Below, piece by piece: positions 1-8,003 of a DNA stretch of 8,003 bases. The DNA comes from a virus (Duplodnaviria; Heunggongvirae; Uroviricota; Caudoviricetes). The DNA lies in the IMG/VR virus record IMGVR_UViG_2660238346_000006, positions 1-8,003 of that record. One strand, given 5' to 3'. The first letter of the stretch is position 1. Each line of letters starts with the position of its first letter. Under the pieces are notes generated by a model, which was not told the DNA's origin, ran no database searches, and was given only the letters and a program-made list of their open reading frames with translations. The translations under genes were made by a program, and so were the position numbers.

Positions 1-67
1 CGCTTTACGTGCGACATATTCCCGTCCATGAACCCTTCACCACACCCCAAAGTTCACTTTGGTTATT

Positions 68-82
68 GCGCTTTGTCAGCGC
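68..82 (-). promoter_or_regulatory. Putative nutL boxB hairpin (P22-type, GACAA loop) on the leftward transcript
   Basis: Plus strand reads GCGCTTTGTCAGCGC, so the minus strand reads GCGCTGACAAAGCGC: a 5-bp GC stem with a GACAA loop, matching the P22-type boxB as I recall it. It lies left of the OL-like operators, where a pL transcript would carry nutL. Confidence 0.5.
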
Positions 83-149
83 CGTAGATTCATATTCGAA
101 TCGTTGTATATTCACCGCCCTGGTGAGTAGTGCGTCCTGCTGATGGGTG

Positions 150-270
150 AACTTTATCGGAATGATAAATTAATGGCAATAGCAAAATGATAAATTCTCT
201 TGGTTTTCAAATATCGTATTGATTCTTATGGTGTTTTATTTTGTTGTAGGAATTCGACAGGATAAATAAA
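150..270. promoter_or_regulatory. Putative OL/pL operator region with repeated TGATAAAT-type half-sites
   Basis: ATGATAAATT occurs at 162-171 and again at 187-196; TTTATC-N5-GATAAA inverted repeat at 154-170; GATAAAT at 261-267. The same motif family recurs in the cI/cro intergenic region (2621-2694). No sizeable ORF here. Confidence 0.45.
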
Positions 271-373
271 GAGATTTGAGGGAGATCTGGATTGCGTTGT
301 TTAGCAAGTTGTATCTATCAGTTTTTCAATAAATACAATCGATTATGTGTTTTTAGGTGGGCGAACGTGGGGC

Positions 374-399
374 AAAGAAAACCCGGCGCTGAGGCCGGG
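374..399 (-). terminator. Rho-independent terminator closing the leftward cI / toxin-antitoxin-chaperone operon
   Basis: Minus strand reads CCCGGC-CTCAGC-GCCGGG followed by TTTTCTTTG, starting about 10 nt after the stop of the SecB-like gene (409): GC-rich 6-bp stem, 6-nt loop, T-tract. Confidence 0.6.
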
Positions 400-408
400 T
401 GGGGAATT

Positions 409-813
409 TCACTTATTACTGTTCGTTTCCATGGGATTGGCCAAGAAATCAAAATAAGGCAGAGTGAACCTACCAAGGTTTGACATGAGGATAATTTGCT
501 CGGCATATGTTTTTATATAGGGATATGCCATATTGGGAGCAATGGACCTTACCTCATATGATTTTGCCATTTCATGAGAAAAATCATCTTCTGACCGGAA
601 GTCAAAGTCGTATGTGATGTCCATCTCAAGCCTGCCTTCAATAGTTACGGAGGCAAAATATCTCACTCTAAATAGCTTTGAATCCTTCACATTAGTGTAA
701 AGTTCATTATTTAGATTAACGGTTGTTTTTATGGATTTTTTTGCTGTTGAATCGCCTTCTAGCCGTGTCATAACCAAGCGTTCAACTTTTTTGCTAATGA
801 GTTCAATTTTCAT
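409..813 (-). CDS. SecB-like chaperone (third gene of the TAC-type module), 134 aa
   Basis: C-terminal segment APNMAYPYIKTYAEQIILMSNLGRFTLPYFDFLAN parallels the conserved E. coli SecB segment ([35 protein letters not shown], recalled from memory). Size is right for SecB-like chaperones. Start ATG overlaps the upstream antitoxin stop (ATGA at 810-813). Confidence 0.7.
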   Translation of the reverse strand: MKIELISKKVERLVMTRLEGDSTAKKSIKTTVNLNNELYTNVKDSKLFRVRYFASVTIEGRLEMDITYDFDFRSEDDFSHEMAKSYEVRSIAPNMAYPYIKTYAEQIILMSNLGRFTLPYFDFLANPMETNSNK

Positions 814-1466
814 GGTAATAATAAGTAATTTCCGTCAGAAGTCATTTCGTCATTCAGGTTGCTAGCCGCTGTGAAACTTGATGACAAGTTACTTATCAAA
901 GAAAAAACATTCCGTTTTTCTTTGCATTTGCCGTTACCCCTTACTGCGCTGAACAACATTTTTGAAAAGTAAGATTCTGTAGCCTTTTCAGCGAAATAAG
1001 CAGAAGGTGATGTGACGGCTGACTCACACCGAGCAATGACGCTAGTCATGGCTGTTTCTTCTTCCTCTGCGTCAACTAGGCTCCATTCAATTGCGCTCAT
1101 ATCTTGAATTAAGATATCTGCAGGAATTCCAAGTCCGTCATGTAGTCTACGGATCATTGAAAGACTTAATGGACGCTTACGATTTAAGACCTCAGATACT
1201 TTAGATGCTGAGCCAATGTATTGTTTCATATCGGCATAAGAGAGGCCTTGTTGATCCATACGGAACTTGATTGCTTCTATGGGATCTGGCTTGTCCATAG
1301 GGAACTCGCGTGACTCATAGTGCTCGATAAGCAAGCCTAGTAGTTCAAACTCATCAAAATCTTCAGTTCCAGGTTGTAAATCACTAGACGCAAGTTCAAT
1401 GAGCCTTTCCATAGCTGCAGCATGCTCTTCACTATTTTTAATGATGCGCCAGCTAGTTCGATTCAT
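810..1466 (-). CDS. higA: HigA-type antitoxin (XRE-family HTH) with ~90-aa C-terminal extension, putative chaperone-addiction region, 218 aa
   Basis: Residues ~95-130 (GSASKVSEVLNRKRPLSLSMIRRLHDGLGIPADILIQD) match the C-terminal HTH of E. coli HigA (GSKSMVSRVLSGKRKLTLEHAKKLATRFGISPALFID, recalled). The ORF then continues ~90 aa beyond where HigA normally ends. ATGA overlaps with higB upstream and the SecB-like gene downstream. Confidence 0.75.
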   Translation of the reverse strand: MNRTSWRIIKNSEEHAAAMERLIELASSDLQPGTEDFDEFELLGLLIEHYESREFPMDKPDPIEAIKFRMDQQGLSYADMKQYIGSASKVSEVLNRKRPLSLSMIRRLHDGLGIPADILIQDMSAIEWSLVDAEEEETAMTSVIARCESAVTSPSAYFAEKATESYFSKMLFSAVRGNGKCKEKRNVFSLISNLSSSFTAASNLNDEMTSDGNYLLLP

Positions 1467-1750
1467 TTAAGCCTCCACTTGTCGTACTCTGCATGAGTTC
1501 CAACTCTTTCAACTATGACCATTCCTGCCTGGTAAACAACTTGGACAACGAGCCGATAGTTATTGCCTTTTATATTAAAAATTACCCTGTTGTTAGGAAG
1601 GAAGTCGGCAGAATTAAATCTATTCCGTATGTCTTGAGTCGTTTTCCAGTTTTCTCTTATCACTTCATCATACCAAGAGTCTAAAGCCCCCTTGGCCTGA
1701 TTGTGCTTCTGGCTAAAACTGTGAAGCTTCTCTACGTTTAAGACCTTCAT
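1463..1750 (-). CDS. higB: HigB-family toxin (ribosome-dependent mRNA interferase, RelE superfamily), 95 aa
   Basis: FNIKGNNYRLVVQVVYQAGMVIVERVGTHAEYD aligns with E. coli K-12 HigB FNVGGNELRVVAMVFFESQKCYIREVMTHKEYD (recalled). Toxin-first gene order is typical of HigBA. Stop overlaps antitoxin start. Confidence 0.8.
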   Translation of the reverse strand: MKVLNVEKLHSFSQKHNQAKGALDSWYDEVIRENWKTTQDIRNRFNSADFLPNNRVIFNIKGNNYRLVVQVVYQAGMVIVERVGTHAEYDKWRLK

Positions 1751-1762
1751 AATCCGATTTTG

Positions 1763-1804
1763 TTCCCTCTTTGGGAATTATAGATTCATTTCCCATAAAG
1801 GGAA
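1763..1804. promoter_or_regulatory. Twin palindromes TTCCC-N5-GGGAA upstream of higB; candidate operator/promoter of the TAC module
   Basis: TTCCCTCTTTGGGAA at 1763-1777 and TTCCCATAAAGGGAA at 1790-1804 lie 13-54 bp upstream of the higB start, inside the 136-bp cI-higB intergenic gap. Type II antitoxins commonly autoregulate through palindromic operators. Confidence 0.45.
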
Positions 1805-1886
1805 TCTGTATTTTTATCCAGAAATGCTATGTACATCACCCAAACGTCTCTTCAGGCCACTGGTTACCAGCTATGTGACGATGAAG

Positions 1887-2591
1887 TCACGAACTTTTCA
1901 GCCACTCCCTTGCCTCGATGTCATCCAGATGGCGAGATTGCTTCAGAATACCAGCTACATACTCCACCTTTGCTACTTGATGATAAGGCAACGTTATAGG
2001 CCTGTGATCCTGGTTAATGCTTGTAAATTGGTATTCTCCATCTCTGTCATAGCCAAGAACCTTAATCATGTTGTGTCCTTCAACGGTTCTGACAAACACC
2101 TCATCACCCGGGAATACTTTGGTGTTAGGCTCAATGAGTACATATTCTCCTGATTTTATTCTGGGCCACATGCTGTCTCCTTTCACACGAAGACCAAAGG
2201 CATCTGGATCATCGCTATAAATTTTGAGCCACCCATCGCGCTCTTCGGTCATCTCGATGGCACCATCAACACCAAGAATTGCCTCACCAACCACGCGCAC
2301 TAACCCTTTTCTTACCTGACCGACAAAAGTTAAAGAATCTGAGAATGATGCAATTGGTGTTACATCATGTACCAAATCAAGCCACCCATTAGGTAACCCA
2401 AGCGCGGCTTCAAATTTTCTTGCTAGTTTATCCCCTATGTTTCGAGTGCTTTTTTCACCGGAGACTTGCGTGAGTTGAGAAGGGCTAACCCCAAGCTTAT
2501 CGGCAAAGCTTGCATTAGTGTTACCCGCGATTTTTTTATGCTCATCTAGCAAAAACGCCAGATTCGATTTGCGAATATCTTTGTTTTCCAT
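1887..2591 (-). CDS. cI: CI-like prophage repressor (N-terminal HTH, C-terminal S24/LexA-like autopeptidase), 234 aa
   Basis: HTH-like N-terminus (FADKLGVSPSQLTQVSG). C-terminal domain has the S24 catalytic-Ser motif (VKGDSMWPRIKSGEYVLIEP) and a downstream Lys (NMIKVL). Divergent from the cro-like gene across an operator-rich spacer. RBS GAGGGA upstream of ATG. Confidence 0.85.
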   Translation of the reverse strand: MENKDIRKSNLAFLLDEHKKIAGNTNASFADKLGVSPSQLTQVSGEKSTRNIGDKLARKFEAALGLPNGWLDLVHDVTPIASFSDSLTFVGQVRKGLVRVVGEAILGVDGAIEMTEERDGWLKIYSDDPDAFGLRVKGDSMWPRIKSGEYVLIEPNTKVFPGDEVFVRTVEGHNMIKVLGYDRDGEYQFTSINQDHRPITLPYHQVAKVEYVAGILKQSRHLDDIEAREWLKSS

Positions 2592-2704
2592 CTCACAATT
2601 TTCCCTCTATTTAGCAAATGGATAAATACGCAATATGATAAATTTACATTGCGGTTGATTTATCAAAATGGTAAAGTTGTTCTGTGTGATAAACGGAGGC
2701 ACTA
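2592..2704. promoter_or_regulatory. OR-type operator / divergent promoter region (PRM-like leftward, PR-like rightward)
   Basis: 113-bp spacer between divergent cI and cro-like genes containing GATAAAT (2621-2627), inverted TGATAAAT (2636-2643) and ATTTATCA (2658-2665), and TGATAAAC (2687-2694). Motif shared with the OL-like region at 154-267. Confidence 0.6.
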
Positions 2705-2938
2705 ATGAGTAATGAACTACTACGCTGGCGAAAAGAGGCTTCTAGCGAGGAATGGAAGCGACTCGCCGCATTAGCGAAAACTTCAGTTGGCTATCTTGAC
2801 CAGATTGCATATGGATTTCGAAGAGCTTCCCCTGATAAAGCGAATGCAATCGAAGAAGCTACTCGTAATTTCACGGGTTATAAACCTGTGAAAAAGGAAA
2901 ACCTAGTGTTCGTATCGCGTAGAGCATCGGCTGCATAA
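2705..2938 (+). CDS. cro: Cro-like small DNA-binding protein, 77 aa
   Basis: First rightward gene after the operator region, strong RBS (GGAGG) before ATG, small basic protein. Assignment is mainly positional; family membership not verifiable by eye. Confidence 0.6.
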   Translation: MSNELLRWRKEASSEEWKRLAALAKTSVGYLDQIAYGFRRASPDKANAIEEATRNFTGYKPVKKENLVFVSRRASAA

Positions 2939-2976
2939 GTAACACCGCTATTTTCACAATGGACATTCGTCCTACG

Positions 2977-2991
2977 TCGCTGACAAAGCGA
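2977..2991 (+). promoter_or_regulatory. Putative nutR boxB hairpin (GACAA loop), with possible boxA-like CGCTATTTT at 2946-2954
   Basis: TCGCTGACAAAGCGA: 5-bp stem with GACAA loop, near-identical to the minus-strand element at 68-82. Located between cro-like and cII, where lambdoid nutR sits. Confidence 0.5.
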
Positions 2992-3076
2992 GTCCCAATA
3001 TATCTGACCAACTAAGGCCATATGCGTTTCCACGCATACCTTTCAACTAACTATTCACTATTGGAAATATTAAGAA

Positions 3077-3442
3077 ATGACACAAACAAGTTACAGCAAA
3101 CTATCACAGCGTGACGTTGATCGCGCAGAAACAGATTTACTCATCAACCTATCAACGCTTACCCAGCGCGGTCTGGCAAAGATGATTGGCTGTCATGAAT
3201 CGAAGATAAGCAGAACGGACTGGAGACTTACCCAGCGCGGTCTGGCAAAGATGATTGGCTGTCATGAATCGAAGATAAGCAGAACGGACTGGAGATTTAT
3301 TGCTTCGGTCTTGTGTGCTTTCGGAATGGCATCAGACATCAGTCCGATTAGCAGGGCTTTTAAGTATGCGCTTGCTGAAATCACAAAGAAAAAACGCCCG
3401 GCGGCAACCGAGCGTTCTGAACAAATCCAGATGGAATTCTGA
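3077..3442 (+). CDS. cII: CII-like transcriptional activator carrying an in-frame 23-codon tandem duplication, 121 aa
   Basis: C-terminus [18 protein letters not shown] matches the lambda CII C-terminus as I recall it. Position between cro and O. Internal repeat [23 protein letters not shown] occurs twice consecutively. Confidence 0.85.
3158..3295 (+). repeat. Perfect 69-bp direct tandem duplication (2 copies) inside cII
   Basis: 3158-3226 and 3227-3295 are identical (cttacccagcgcggtctggcaaagatgattggctgtcatgaatcgaagataagcagaacggactggaga). Flanking bases differ on both sides. 69 bp = 23 codons, so the frame is preserved. Confidence 0.9.
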
Positions 3443-3474
3443 GGGAATTACTGGATCAATCCACAGGAGTAATT

Positions 3475-3621
3475 ATGACAAAACAACTCAGTCCTTACCA
3501 GGACAAAATTCACAAACACATACTACGTGATCGCTTCCTGTCCAGCTTCAAGCAGCCTGGTCGATTCCGGGCTGGGTTGGAAAAAGTGAAGCTGATGCAG
3601 AAGGAGAAAGGTCATGAGTAA
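3475..3621 (+). CDS. Small hypothetical protein (48 aa) between cII and O; below the ORF-track length cutoff
   Basis: ATG at 3475 preceded by GGAG (7-nt spacing); translates [48 protein letters not shown] with stop TAA 3619-3621, overlapping the O start. Hand-translated. Confidence 0.35.
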
Positions 3622-4519
3622 TCTTGCAACCGTAACACATTTAAGGCCTTCACAACGGCCTGTGGAGCGTCGTGTGGCAGAAGTTGAAGATGGTTATACC
3701 CGTCTTGCAAATGCCCTGTATGAAGAGCTTATCGGCGCAGATTTAACGAAAAATCAGAGCAAGGTTGCCCACGCCATATGCCGTAAAACATACGGCTACG
3801 GTAAAAAGATGGATCGCATCTCTGATAGTCAGTTAGCTCAAATTACCAGGCTGCCAAGACAGAAGGTAAACAAGGCCAAGAATGAGCTTATCGCGATGAA
3901 GGTTATCCTTCGCGAAGGCCAGCAAATCGGGCCTAACAAGAACATCGAGGAATGGCAAATCGAAGGGTGTCACTACTCTGGTGATAATGTCACTGCATTG
4001 GTGACAAAAAGTGTCACCAAAACGGTGACAGCGCTGTCACCAAAACAGGGACACACAAAAGAAACTATTACAAAAGAAAAAAGAAAAGATTATTCGTCCG
4101 AGAATTCTGGCGAATCCTCTGACCAGCCAGAAAACGATCTTTCTGTGGTTAAACCGGATGCTGCAATTCAGAGCGGCAGCAAGTGGGGAACAGCAGAAGA
4201 CCTGACCGCCGCAGAGTGGATGTTTGACATGGTGAAGACCATCGCACCATCAGCCAGAAAACCGAATTTTGCAGGGTGGGCTAACGATATCCGCCTGATG
4301 CGTGAACGTGACGGACGTAACCACCGCGATATGTGTGTGCTTTTCCGCTGGGCCTGCCAGGACAACTTCTGGTCCGGTAACGTGCTGAGTCCGGCCAAAC
4401 TCCGCGACAAGTGGACCCAGCTCGAAATCAACCGTAACAAGCAACAGGCAGGCGTGACAGCCAGCAAACCAAAACCCGACCTGACAAACACTGACTGGAT
4501 TTACGGGGTGGATTTATGA
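3614..4519 (+). CDS. O: Replication initiator protein O (lambda O family), 301 aa
   Basis: C-terminal half ([39 protein letters not shown]...[11 protein letters not shown]) matches lambda O as recalled. Contains iteron-like repeats plus an AT-rich tract mid-gene. Stop overlaps P start (ATGA). Confidence 0.9.
3968..4090. repeat. Putative replication origin: four iteron-like repeats with TGTCAC...GTGACA symmetry followed by an AT-rich tract, inside O
   Basis: Repeats begin near 3968, 3989, 4012 and 4034 (about 21-23 bp apart): TGTCACtactctgGTGATA, TGTCACtgcattgGTGACA, TGTCACCaaaacGGTGACA, TGTCACCaaaacagGGACAC. Followed by an A-rich stretch 4055-4090 (acaaaagaaactattacaaaagaaaaaagaaaag). Same architecture as ori-lambda, different iteron sequence. 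Confidence 0.6.
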
Positions 4520-7158: not shown

Positions 7159-7298
7159 TTGACGTGATGATTTATTCGGGGCTATATTCCTCACGCGCCA
7201 GCAAAATCTGGCGTCGGGATTTGCACCCCGGATATTCAACCGCGACAGACACACGCCGCGAGCGTGTTTTTTGTTGTCGTAAGCACACGCACATCTGA
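7155..7298 (+). CDS. Small hypothetical protein at the ninF position, ~47 aa
   Basis: In-frame GTG at 7155 overlaps ninE stop (GTGA) with GAGGA upstream; alternative ATG at 7167. Product [47 protein letters not shown]; family not recognised. Confidence 0.35.
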
Positions 7299-7436
7299 AT
7301 TATGGTGGGGCGTATGGGGGAGCCGAAAGGCTCGCCGGTTGGTTGATCCGGTAGTGCAAACCCTGTACGTCTCACCACCCAAAGATTTGCACCTGACGGT
7401 GGTGATAGTTAAATTCATCAACCAGAGGGCGTTGTC

Positions 7437-8003
7437 ATGGCGACTCAAATTTCCGTTGAAACTCTTTCCCCAATTGCCTACAACCAGATCCCCGTAATTA
7501 CTACAGAATTATTGGCGCAATTGTATGGCACTGAAACAGTCAATATAAAAATGAATTTTTCCCGTAACTCTGCGCGATTTGTACAGGGAAAACATTTCTT
7601 TAAGTTGGAAGGGAATGAACTACGTGAGTTCAAGCACAGACTATCTTTAAGCGAGTCTGTTAGCCGCGAGGTAACAGAAAGTTACTCTGTGAAAATCGCC
7701 CGCAATGTTCGCTCCCTCATCCTCTGGACAGAACGAGGCGCAGCCCGTCACGCAAAAATGCTCGAAACTGATCAGGCGTGGGAAGTGTTCGAAAAACTGG
7801 AAGACTGCTATTTCAGCCAGTGCGAGAAAAATACTGGCAAACAAGAGAAGAAGCTCAACGGACTTTCCGCAAAAGAAGCAAACAGCCTTGTATGGCTATG
7901 GGATTATGCTAACCGTTCACAGGCATTATTCCGCGAACTGTATCCGGCGCTAAAGCAAATTCAATCGAACTATTCTGACAGGTGCTACAACTACGGTCAT
8001 GAG
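7437..8003 (+). CDS. ORF6N-domain / Roi-like DNA-binding protein, 5-prime partial (runs off the window end)
   Basis: Hand translation from ATG 7437 (GAGGG 8 nt upstream) is open to the end: [66 protein letters not shown]... The PVIT-x-LAxLYG-x-E-x-RN-x-RF-x-G-x-FFKL pattern is typical of ORF6N-domain proteins. Absent from the ORF track, presumably because it has no stop in the window. Confidence 0.55.

Follow-up and report, generated by a model that had tools for sequence, protein, structure and literature searches.

GACAA-loop hairpins as the likely boxB elements of nutL and nutR in an H-19B/933W/HK97-type lambdoid prophage

RESULTS AND DISCUSSION

The window analyzed here is a complete draft contig of 8003 nucleotides (nt) (CCCD01000182.1, assembly GCA_000939215.1; IMG/VR record IMGVR_UViG_2660238346_000006), and it is the immunity and replication region of a lambdoid prophage, with pL and its operators OL, the cI operon, cro, cII, O, and P. 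Two short hairpins with a GACAA loop, one on each DNA strand, are almost certainly the boxB elements of nutL and nutR, the sites used by the antitermination protein N, in a prophage of the H-19B/933W/HK97 type. This assignment draws on the sequences, predicted folds, and positions of the hairpins, on identity with the nutR of phage H-19B and with a boxB of phage P22, on linkage to N in close relatives, and on the co-variation of hairpin loop and N motif across many phages. The feature had been identified by an earlier note on this DNA; that identification is correct and concerns something already known, since the N-nut system of this phage group has been dissected both genetically and biochemically and work on Rho and N routinely uses the H-19B nutR as a substrate.

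Sequence, fold, and position of the hairpin pair

The near-identical hairpins that the earlier note had placed at positions 68 to 82 (minus strand) and 2977 to 2991 (plus strand) were found with exactly the coordinates, strands, and letters claimed. Fold prediction, which the note had proposed as a check, returned for each hairpin on its own a fully paired stem of 5 bp closed by the 5-nt loop GACAA as the minimum-energy fold (z about −2.4). The sole difference between the two is the outermost pair, G-C in nutL and U-A in nutR, which is a compensatory change. The 11-mer common to both, GCTGACAAAGC, occurs 2 times in the window against 0.19 expected when up to 1 mismatch is allowed. Hairpins that combine a GACAA loop with 5 Watson-Crick pairs also number 2, compared with a mean of 0.02 in 2000 dinucleotide-preserving shuffles, none of which (0/2000) reached 2. 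The hairpins are only 15 nt long and a similar hairpin in the O gene appears coincidental, which might favor their being chance inverted repeats without function. However, the shuffles, the canonical positions and sense orientation described below, the invariance of the hairpins over hundreds of mosaic relatives, their linkage to N class, and the fact that nutR is a footprinted site make this explanation exceedingly improbable.

Since the pL transcript is predicted to start near position 144, the nutL boxB begins at about +63, that is, 63 nt into that transcript, and the nutR boxB lies 39 nt past the cro stop codon and 86 nt ahead of the cII start codon (Table 1). Given these distances from pL, cro, and cII, both hairpins are in the canonical nutL and nutR positions. 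At both sites GACAA is read in the sense of early transcription, leftward at nutL and rightward at nutR, on opposite DNA strands. The expectation in the earlier note that the pair would mark nutL and nutR thus agrees with the pL-proximal and cro-cII placement and with the orientation of both hairpins. Our promoter scan did not flag pR because its −35 hexamer has only 3/6 matches.

Instead of RNA sites for N, G+C-rich inverted repeats near promoters and operators could also be intrinsic terminators or palindromic DNA recognized by a repressor or another dimeric protein. Neither stem is followed by a U-run (the following letters are AAUAACC and GUCCCAAU), and the terminator scan made no call at either site. 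The operators of this phage have a different motif, ATGATAAAT, and the asymmetric GACAA, always in the sense of transcription, co-varies with the N motif and not with repressor type. We therefore regard a role as terminators or protein-binding palindromes as highly improbable and treat the hairpins as boxB elements in what follows.

The sense strand of the O gene contains a third hairpin with a GACAA loop, weaker because one of its pairs is G-U (Table 1), which is absent from the earlier note. It was considered as an extra nut site and rejected, being located in coding sequence (LRDKWT) and found with GACAA-class and GAAA-class N alike. It is probably a coding coincidence that travels with the O allele, and it serves as a negative control.

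Identity with the H-19B nutR and architecture of the nut sites

The nutR region of the window is that of phage H-19B. The supplement of a 2012 study from the Sen laboratory (PMC3526286) gives oligonucleotides antisense to the boxA (RS662), spacer (RS663), boxB (RS664), and downstream part (RS665) of H-19B nutR, and their reverse complements match the window exactly at positions 2934 to 2957, 2955 to 2976, 2973 to 2996, and 2992 to 3017, respectively. All 84 nt (84/84) between positions 2934 and 3017 are covered by these oligonucleotides and are therefore identical to the H-19B nutR. When N plus NusA/NusG were footprinted on H-19B nutR with RNase H and T1, protection appeared at the spacer and boxB but not at boxA; the same study described two hairpins in nutR, used nutR/tR1 as a Rho-dependent terminator overlapping the nut site, and reported N-dependent read-through of the terminator at H-19B nutR/tR1 (PMC3526286), which is identical in sequence to the window site. 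N binding and antitermination at this site are thus matters of published record for H-19B, and the same behavior would be expected in the present strain.

Folding of positions 2936 to 3080 likewise gave two nutR hairpins, the spacer hairpin and boxB. A stem-loop between boxA and boxB, a feature of the H-19B type, is therefore present in nutR, and nutL has an analogous hairpin ahead of boxB, with the same CUACG directly before boxB. This spacer stem-loop was reportedly called the "reducer" by Neely and Friedman and is said to bring the flanking elements together. The hairpin at the corresponding position of nutL in epsilon34, Oslo, and Sakai differs in sequence.

The boxA-like element of nutR, CGCUAUUUU, sits inside the match of oligonucleotide RS662, which is named for the H-19B nutR boxA, and its match to the boxA consensus CGCUCUUUA is on its own not above chance. 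Neely and Friedman (2000), a study that PMC3526286 cites, are said to have found H-19B N to work independently of boxA, NusB, and S10. A weak boxA in nutR, and a missing one in nutL (see below), fits this reported independence.

In the H-19B system, whose N is common to 933W, HK97, BP-4795, and phi24B, nutR contains boxA, spacer hairpin, and boxB in the same order as in the window, and the nut sites of the window show no differences from those of H-19B. The N of the window lineage differs from the H-19B-type N by three substitutions (A21V, I67V, and A89T), and the window prophage differs from H-19B-type phages in having a cII duplication and a BP-4795-type immunity module with HigBA-like cargo.

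The N gene left of the window

N is not visible in the window because the contig ends inside the N leader, the continuation of which is seen in sister contig L419 and in L002. L419 (GCA_000936105.1) is 100% identical to window positions 1 to 4349 and extends 425 nt further left; in it, the start codon of N (MTRRTQFKGNSRSRRRERLKVKALANG...) is 98 nt beyond the left end of the window, and the gene stays open as far as the contig reaches, to at least codon 109. The 82-nt string made up of boxB and leader (window 1 to 82, minus strand) was found in 166 fetched loci. Among the 160 of these with at least 500 nt of downstream sequence (fetches overlap, and some loci are the same contig), the distance between the 5′ end of boxB and the N start codon is exactly 180 nt in every case (160/160), including a group of 8 made up of motif variants and one frameshifted copy. 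Conversely, GCGCU-GACAA-AGCGC occurs 143 to 276 nt upstream of N in all 79 viral contigs that encode this N and have enough flank (79/79). The N proteins of the nearest relatives are 99 to 100% identical to N of HK97, 933W, phi24B, and many Shiga toxin-converting (Stx) phages. The earlier note had predicted an N-like gene to the left of the window, as L419 and the leader-bearing loci bear out. It had also proposed P22-type RNA specificity for this N and a search for an arginine-rich motif, and on sequence comparison the N of the relatives would qualify, belonging to the same Pfam family (PF25694) with a motif that aligns with that of P22.

Several points weigh against the assignment of the hairpins to an N-nut system of the H-19B type. 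The contig itself contains no N gene, and the case for N in this strain is made by the sister contigs. In an Rfam scan with E values up to 1, no family covered nut or boxB, so there is no independent model-based call. No boxA within 2 mismatches was detected in nutL (positions 83 to 144, minus strand), where AAUAUACAAC stands in the place of lambda's CGCUCUUAA. The sequence of H-19B nutL was not found in the literature searched, so that only nutR is tied directly to experiments; that search also returned nothing on 933W boxB or nut sites or on Shiga-phage nutL and nutR. Lastly, in a sister contig that is 99.98% identical to the window over 5081 nt and has the rare cII duplication too (L418 = L406; GCA_000941535.1), an IS1203-linked deletion truncates N after codon 96. 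There (positions 1 to 505), N is fused to the interior of the transposase gene of IS1203, an IS3-family element, with loss of the invariant C-terminal LPNVALYAAGYRKSKQLTAR region. IS1203 lies about 65 nt downstream of an intact N in Escherichia coli O157:H7 strain F7349 (L416, 5518 to 6940), and the junction in L418 therefore represents a 719-nt deletion.

It is possible, then, that the nut sites are genuine but orphaned, the cognate N being inactive and the sites either relics or served in trans by the identical N of a co-resident prophage. The fusion of N to the transposase gene in L418, the duplication of 23 amino acids (aa) in the CII protein of this prophage, and a frameshifted N in another locus (L407) all point this way. 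On the other side, the N of the 100%-identical L419 is intact past the break found in L418, and both boxB elements and the leader are unmutated relative to the functional HK97 and 933W. We consider orphaned sites unlikely, although their probability is not negligible, and favor boxB elements of a nutL-nutR pair with its own N.

Comparison with P22, lambda, and other N-nut systems

The annotation of the P22 record gives nutL as GCTCTTTAACTTCGATGATGCGCTGACAAAGCGC and nutR as GCTCTTTACCAATCTGAACCGCCGACAACGCGGT, with a GACAA loop in both, whereas the annotated boxB elements of lambda, GCCCUGAAGAAGGGC and GCCCUGAAAAAGGGC, have GAAGA and GAAAA loops. Both annotations agree with the statement in the earlier note that the loop is P22-type GACAA and not lambda's GAAAA. 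The P22 nutL boxB 15-mer is identical to the nutL boxB of the window, and the same RNA, GCGCUGACAAAGCGC, was used for the structure with the P22 N peptide (PDB 1A4T), where the loop adopts a GNRA-like fold by extruding its C (PMC11480772; PMC12550061). P22 gp24 and the H-19B-type N belong to the same Pfam family, PF25694 (N_peptide), and are about 40% identical overall; the H-19B-type N of the relatives scores 58.5 bits (cut-off 27.9), and P22 gp24 scores 152 bits over its whole length. Their arginine-rich motifs align (FKGNSRSRRRER in the H-19B-type N versus FAGNAKTRRHER in P22) and start alike, as F-x-G-N-[AS]-[KR]-[TS]-R-R-x-E-R, but diverge after E-R. At the C terminus, the H-19B-type N has LPNVALYAAGYRKSKQLTAR and P22 gp24 has LPGVALYAAGHRKSKQITAR, with VALYAAGxRKSKQxTAR in common. 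Functional cross-recognition, of the window boxB by P22 gp24 or of the P22 boxB by H-19B N, would be expected for nutL, where the RNA is identical. Unlike the window, P22 lacks a spacer hairpin and carries a consensus boxA, GCUCUUUA, in nutL as well as in nutR; its nutR boxB also has another stem (CCGC) with C-C at the loop-closing position. A sequence search of N against PDB chains did not retrieve the P22 N peptide; its sole match was spurious (E = 1.5).

Lambda resembles the window in the genome positions of the nut sites, in the backbone of the pL leader (AUCAGCAGGACGCACU, a hairpin before boxA, and a G-rich arm), and in the 5-bp boxB stem. The nutL flanks of the window are homologous to lambda both in the hairpin UCACC-AGGGC-GGUGA (112 to 126, minus strand) and in the leader past boxB, where, side by side and by eye, hairpin CCAAAGUGAACUUUGG and arm GGGGUGUGGUG are homologous to the lambda N leader; the context from cro to boxA is also homologous by eye. 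Unlike the window, lambda has a GCCCU stem with GAAGA/GAAAA loops and a boxA at both sites. Lambda N belongs to an unrelated family by Pfam, and among the N proteins compared only P22 gp24 and the H-19B-type proteins match PF25694.

The N proteins of VT2-Sakai (L004) and epsilon34 (L003) are homologous to the H-19B-type N, with 41 to 71% identity. Both phages share with the window the CUACG-boxB context and the nutR spacer hairpin, but in each of their nut sites the boxB loop is a GAAA tetraloop, shorter by one C. Apart from this single loop C, the nutR flank of Sakai is nearly the same as that of the window. The motif of these N proteins, G[TS]AA[SG]RRR[AE]RRA..., has Ala at the residue that is Lys or Arg in the GACAA classes. 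In the Oslo-type system (L005), a nutL with a GUCAA loop closed by C-C is paired with a GACAA nutR.

Co-variation of boxB loop and N motif

The N motif class and the boxB loop co-varied without exception among 331 non-identical N loci, which were fetched with four N queries and deduplicated by sequence, with some contigs possibly counted twice. The H-19B/Oslo class had a GACAA loop at nutL in 135 loci and GUCAA in 5 (Oslo-type), and GACAA at nutR in all 101 with enough flank, where 96 have the 15-mer of the window and 5 have the Oslo-type UCGCU-GACAA-GGCGA. All P22-class loci had GACAA (nutL, 71/71; nutR, 67/67). GAAA was the loop in the VT2-Sakai class (nutL, 77/77; nutR, 57/58, with none detected in the other) and in the epsilon34 class (nutL, 37/37; nutR, 33/33). 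Where the loop is GACAA or GUCAA, the residue three positions past the conserved Gly of the N motif is Lys or Arg (G-N-A-K, G-N-S-R, and G-T-S-R), and where the loop is GAAA, that residue is Ala (G-T-A-A and G-S-A-A). Since N and nutR are separated by 61 different distances (1430 to 3680 nt) in the H-19B class, nutR has been kept across many different intervening immunity modules. The stems co-vary: the 12 unique boxB sequences have G-C, U-A, C-G, or A-U as their outermost pair, C-G, G-C, or U-G as their second, and G-C or U-A as their third. These pairs were counted directly, and a MAFFT alignment of the 12 was left unused, with the loop gap misplaced and one sequence shifted.

The genome paper on epsilon34 treated N-terminal variants of N as distinct BoxB specificities and predicted a distinct one for epsilon34 N (PMC2629481), with HK97 among the reference phages for predicted specificities (Table 1 footnote of that paper). 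It may be that a single loop nucleotide divides phages with a PF25694 N into discrete classes of RNA specificity, with the window an ordinary GACAA member; we see this generalization as evenly poised between right and wrong. If it is true and the classes are orthogonal, co-resident 933W-type and Sakai-type Stx prophages would not cross-activate each other's early operons, and inserting or deleting one loop C would switch control. This would be a modest refinement within a known system.

Proposed mechanism and use in annotation

The mechanism of N-dependent antitermination is established for H-19B, P22, and lambda and, by analogy, would apply to this strain as follows. Upon loss of the repressor, polymerase would start leftward at pL and rightward at pR and would transcribe the nut sites into RNA. 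The GACAA boxB hairpin would be bound by the N-terminal arginine-rich motif of N, which would be encoded 180 nt downstream of the nutL boxB, just past the left end of the contig. N would then join the elongating polymerase, with NusA on the spacer and the N C terminus on the polymerase (PMC3526286). The modified polymerase would resist terminators further along the transcript, among them tR1, which is Rho dependent and overlaps nutR, and the resulting read-through would allow expression of the delayed-early genes cII, O, P, nin, and Q.

For annotation, the pair fixes the early units of pL and pR and predicts that the adjoining contig begins with N. By its nut sites, the prophage further belongs to the 933W/HK97 class of N specificity, which bears on trans-activation between co-resident prophages at induction.

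Organization of the early region

Features of the early region are listed in Table 1. Window positions 1 to 3100 have 99.1% identity to Stx1a-converting phages and BP-4795, and genes for O and P, a ren-like gene, ninB, and a dam-like gene lie to the right of cII. The left end of the contig is inside the N leader and the right end is inside an antirepressor (ant)-like open reading frame (ORF); these ends are consistent with repeat-induced assembly breaks in a genome with several lambdoid prophages. HigBA-like cargo of the cI transcription unit (381 to 1750, minus strand) occupies the position of rex in lambda.

TABLE 1 Positions of the nut sites, promoters, genes, and hairpins in the 8003-nt window
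Feature	Positions	Strand	Details
N leader, 5′ part, downstream of nutL	1-67	minus	Hairpin CCAAAGUGAACUUUGG (47-62), G-rich arm GGGGUGUGGUG
nutL boxB	68-82	minus	GCGCTGACAAAGCGC (plus-strand letters GCGCTTTGTCAGCGC); GCGCU-GACAA-AGCGC; own fold −8.5 kcal/mol
nutL spacer hairpin	87-102	minus	GAUUC-GAAUAU-GAAUC, then CUACG directly 5′ of boxB; fold
Predicted pL transcript start	about 144	minus	AUCAGCAGGACGCACU, conserved 5′ end of lambda and P22 pL transcripts
Inferred pL	144-179	minus	−35 TTGCCA (179-174), 17 nt, −10 TAAAGT (156-151); promoter scan
OL operators	161-171, 186-196		AATGATAAATT twice; ATGATAAAT/ATTTATCA motif recurs in OR (2618-2670)
Intrinsic-terminator-like hairpin	381-400	minus	After cI-unit cargo, just before pL
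134-aa ORF	409-813	minus	No Pfam match; only PHROG of unknown function
218-aa helix-turn-helix (HTH) protein	810-1466	minus	May be HigA-like antitoxin
HigB toxin	1463-1750	minus	Pfam 104 bits
cI repressor	1887-2591	minus	Peptidase_S24 domain
Inferred pR	2649-2677	plus	TTGCGG, 17 nt, TAAAGT; operator between hexamers; layout as pL
cro	2705-2938	plus	77 aa; annotated cro in BP-4795; PHROG transcriptional repressor match
nutR boxA-like	2946-2954	plus	CGCUAUUUU; by eye counterpart of lambda nutR boxA CGCUCUUA
nutR spacer hairpin	2961-2972	plus	GGAC-AUUC-GUCC; fold of 2936-3080
nutR boxB	2977-2991	plus	TCGCTGACAAAGCGA; UCGCU-GACAA-AGCGA; own fold −6.6 kcal/mol
Region from nutR to cII (tR1 region)	2992-3076	plus	Hairpin UAUGCGU-UUCC-ACGCAUA at 3021-3038
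cII	3077-3442	plus
Third GACAA hairpin, weaker	4401-4415	plus	TCCGC-GACAA-GTGGA, one G-U pair; inside O gene, sense strand

Other features of the window

The cII gene contains an in-frame 69-bp tandem duplication (3158 to 3299; 2.1 copies, 98% matching) that repeats 23 aa, giving a CII of 121 aa instead of about 98. The repeat lies in the likely helix-turn-helix region, as suggested by weak matches to Pfam HTH families. Scans of genome and metagenome contig collections gave no match to the duplication junction. Six contigs, drawn from at least 5 NCBI draft assemblies, encode the identical 121-aa CII, and the duplication is therefore a real lineage marker and not an assembly artifact. It likely impairs or alters CII.

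Antisense to cII, at the 3′ end of that gene (3391 to 3418, minus strand), is a strong hairpin that resembles a terminator, has a U-run, and gave no Rfam match. Its position and orientation match those of the oop RNA terminator of lambda and P22. Near the right end of the window, Rfam matches on the plus strand comprise isrK (7195 to 7272, 76 bits), C4 antisense RNA (7298 to 7382, 74 bits), and a C4 a1/b1 target (7182 to 7234) that, at 45.8 bits, is just under the gathering score. The isrK and C4 matches are directly upstream of the antirepressor-like ORF (7437 to 8003) that runs off the contig end, and positions 7182 to 8003 look like the known C4-controlled ant module of the P1/P7 type.

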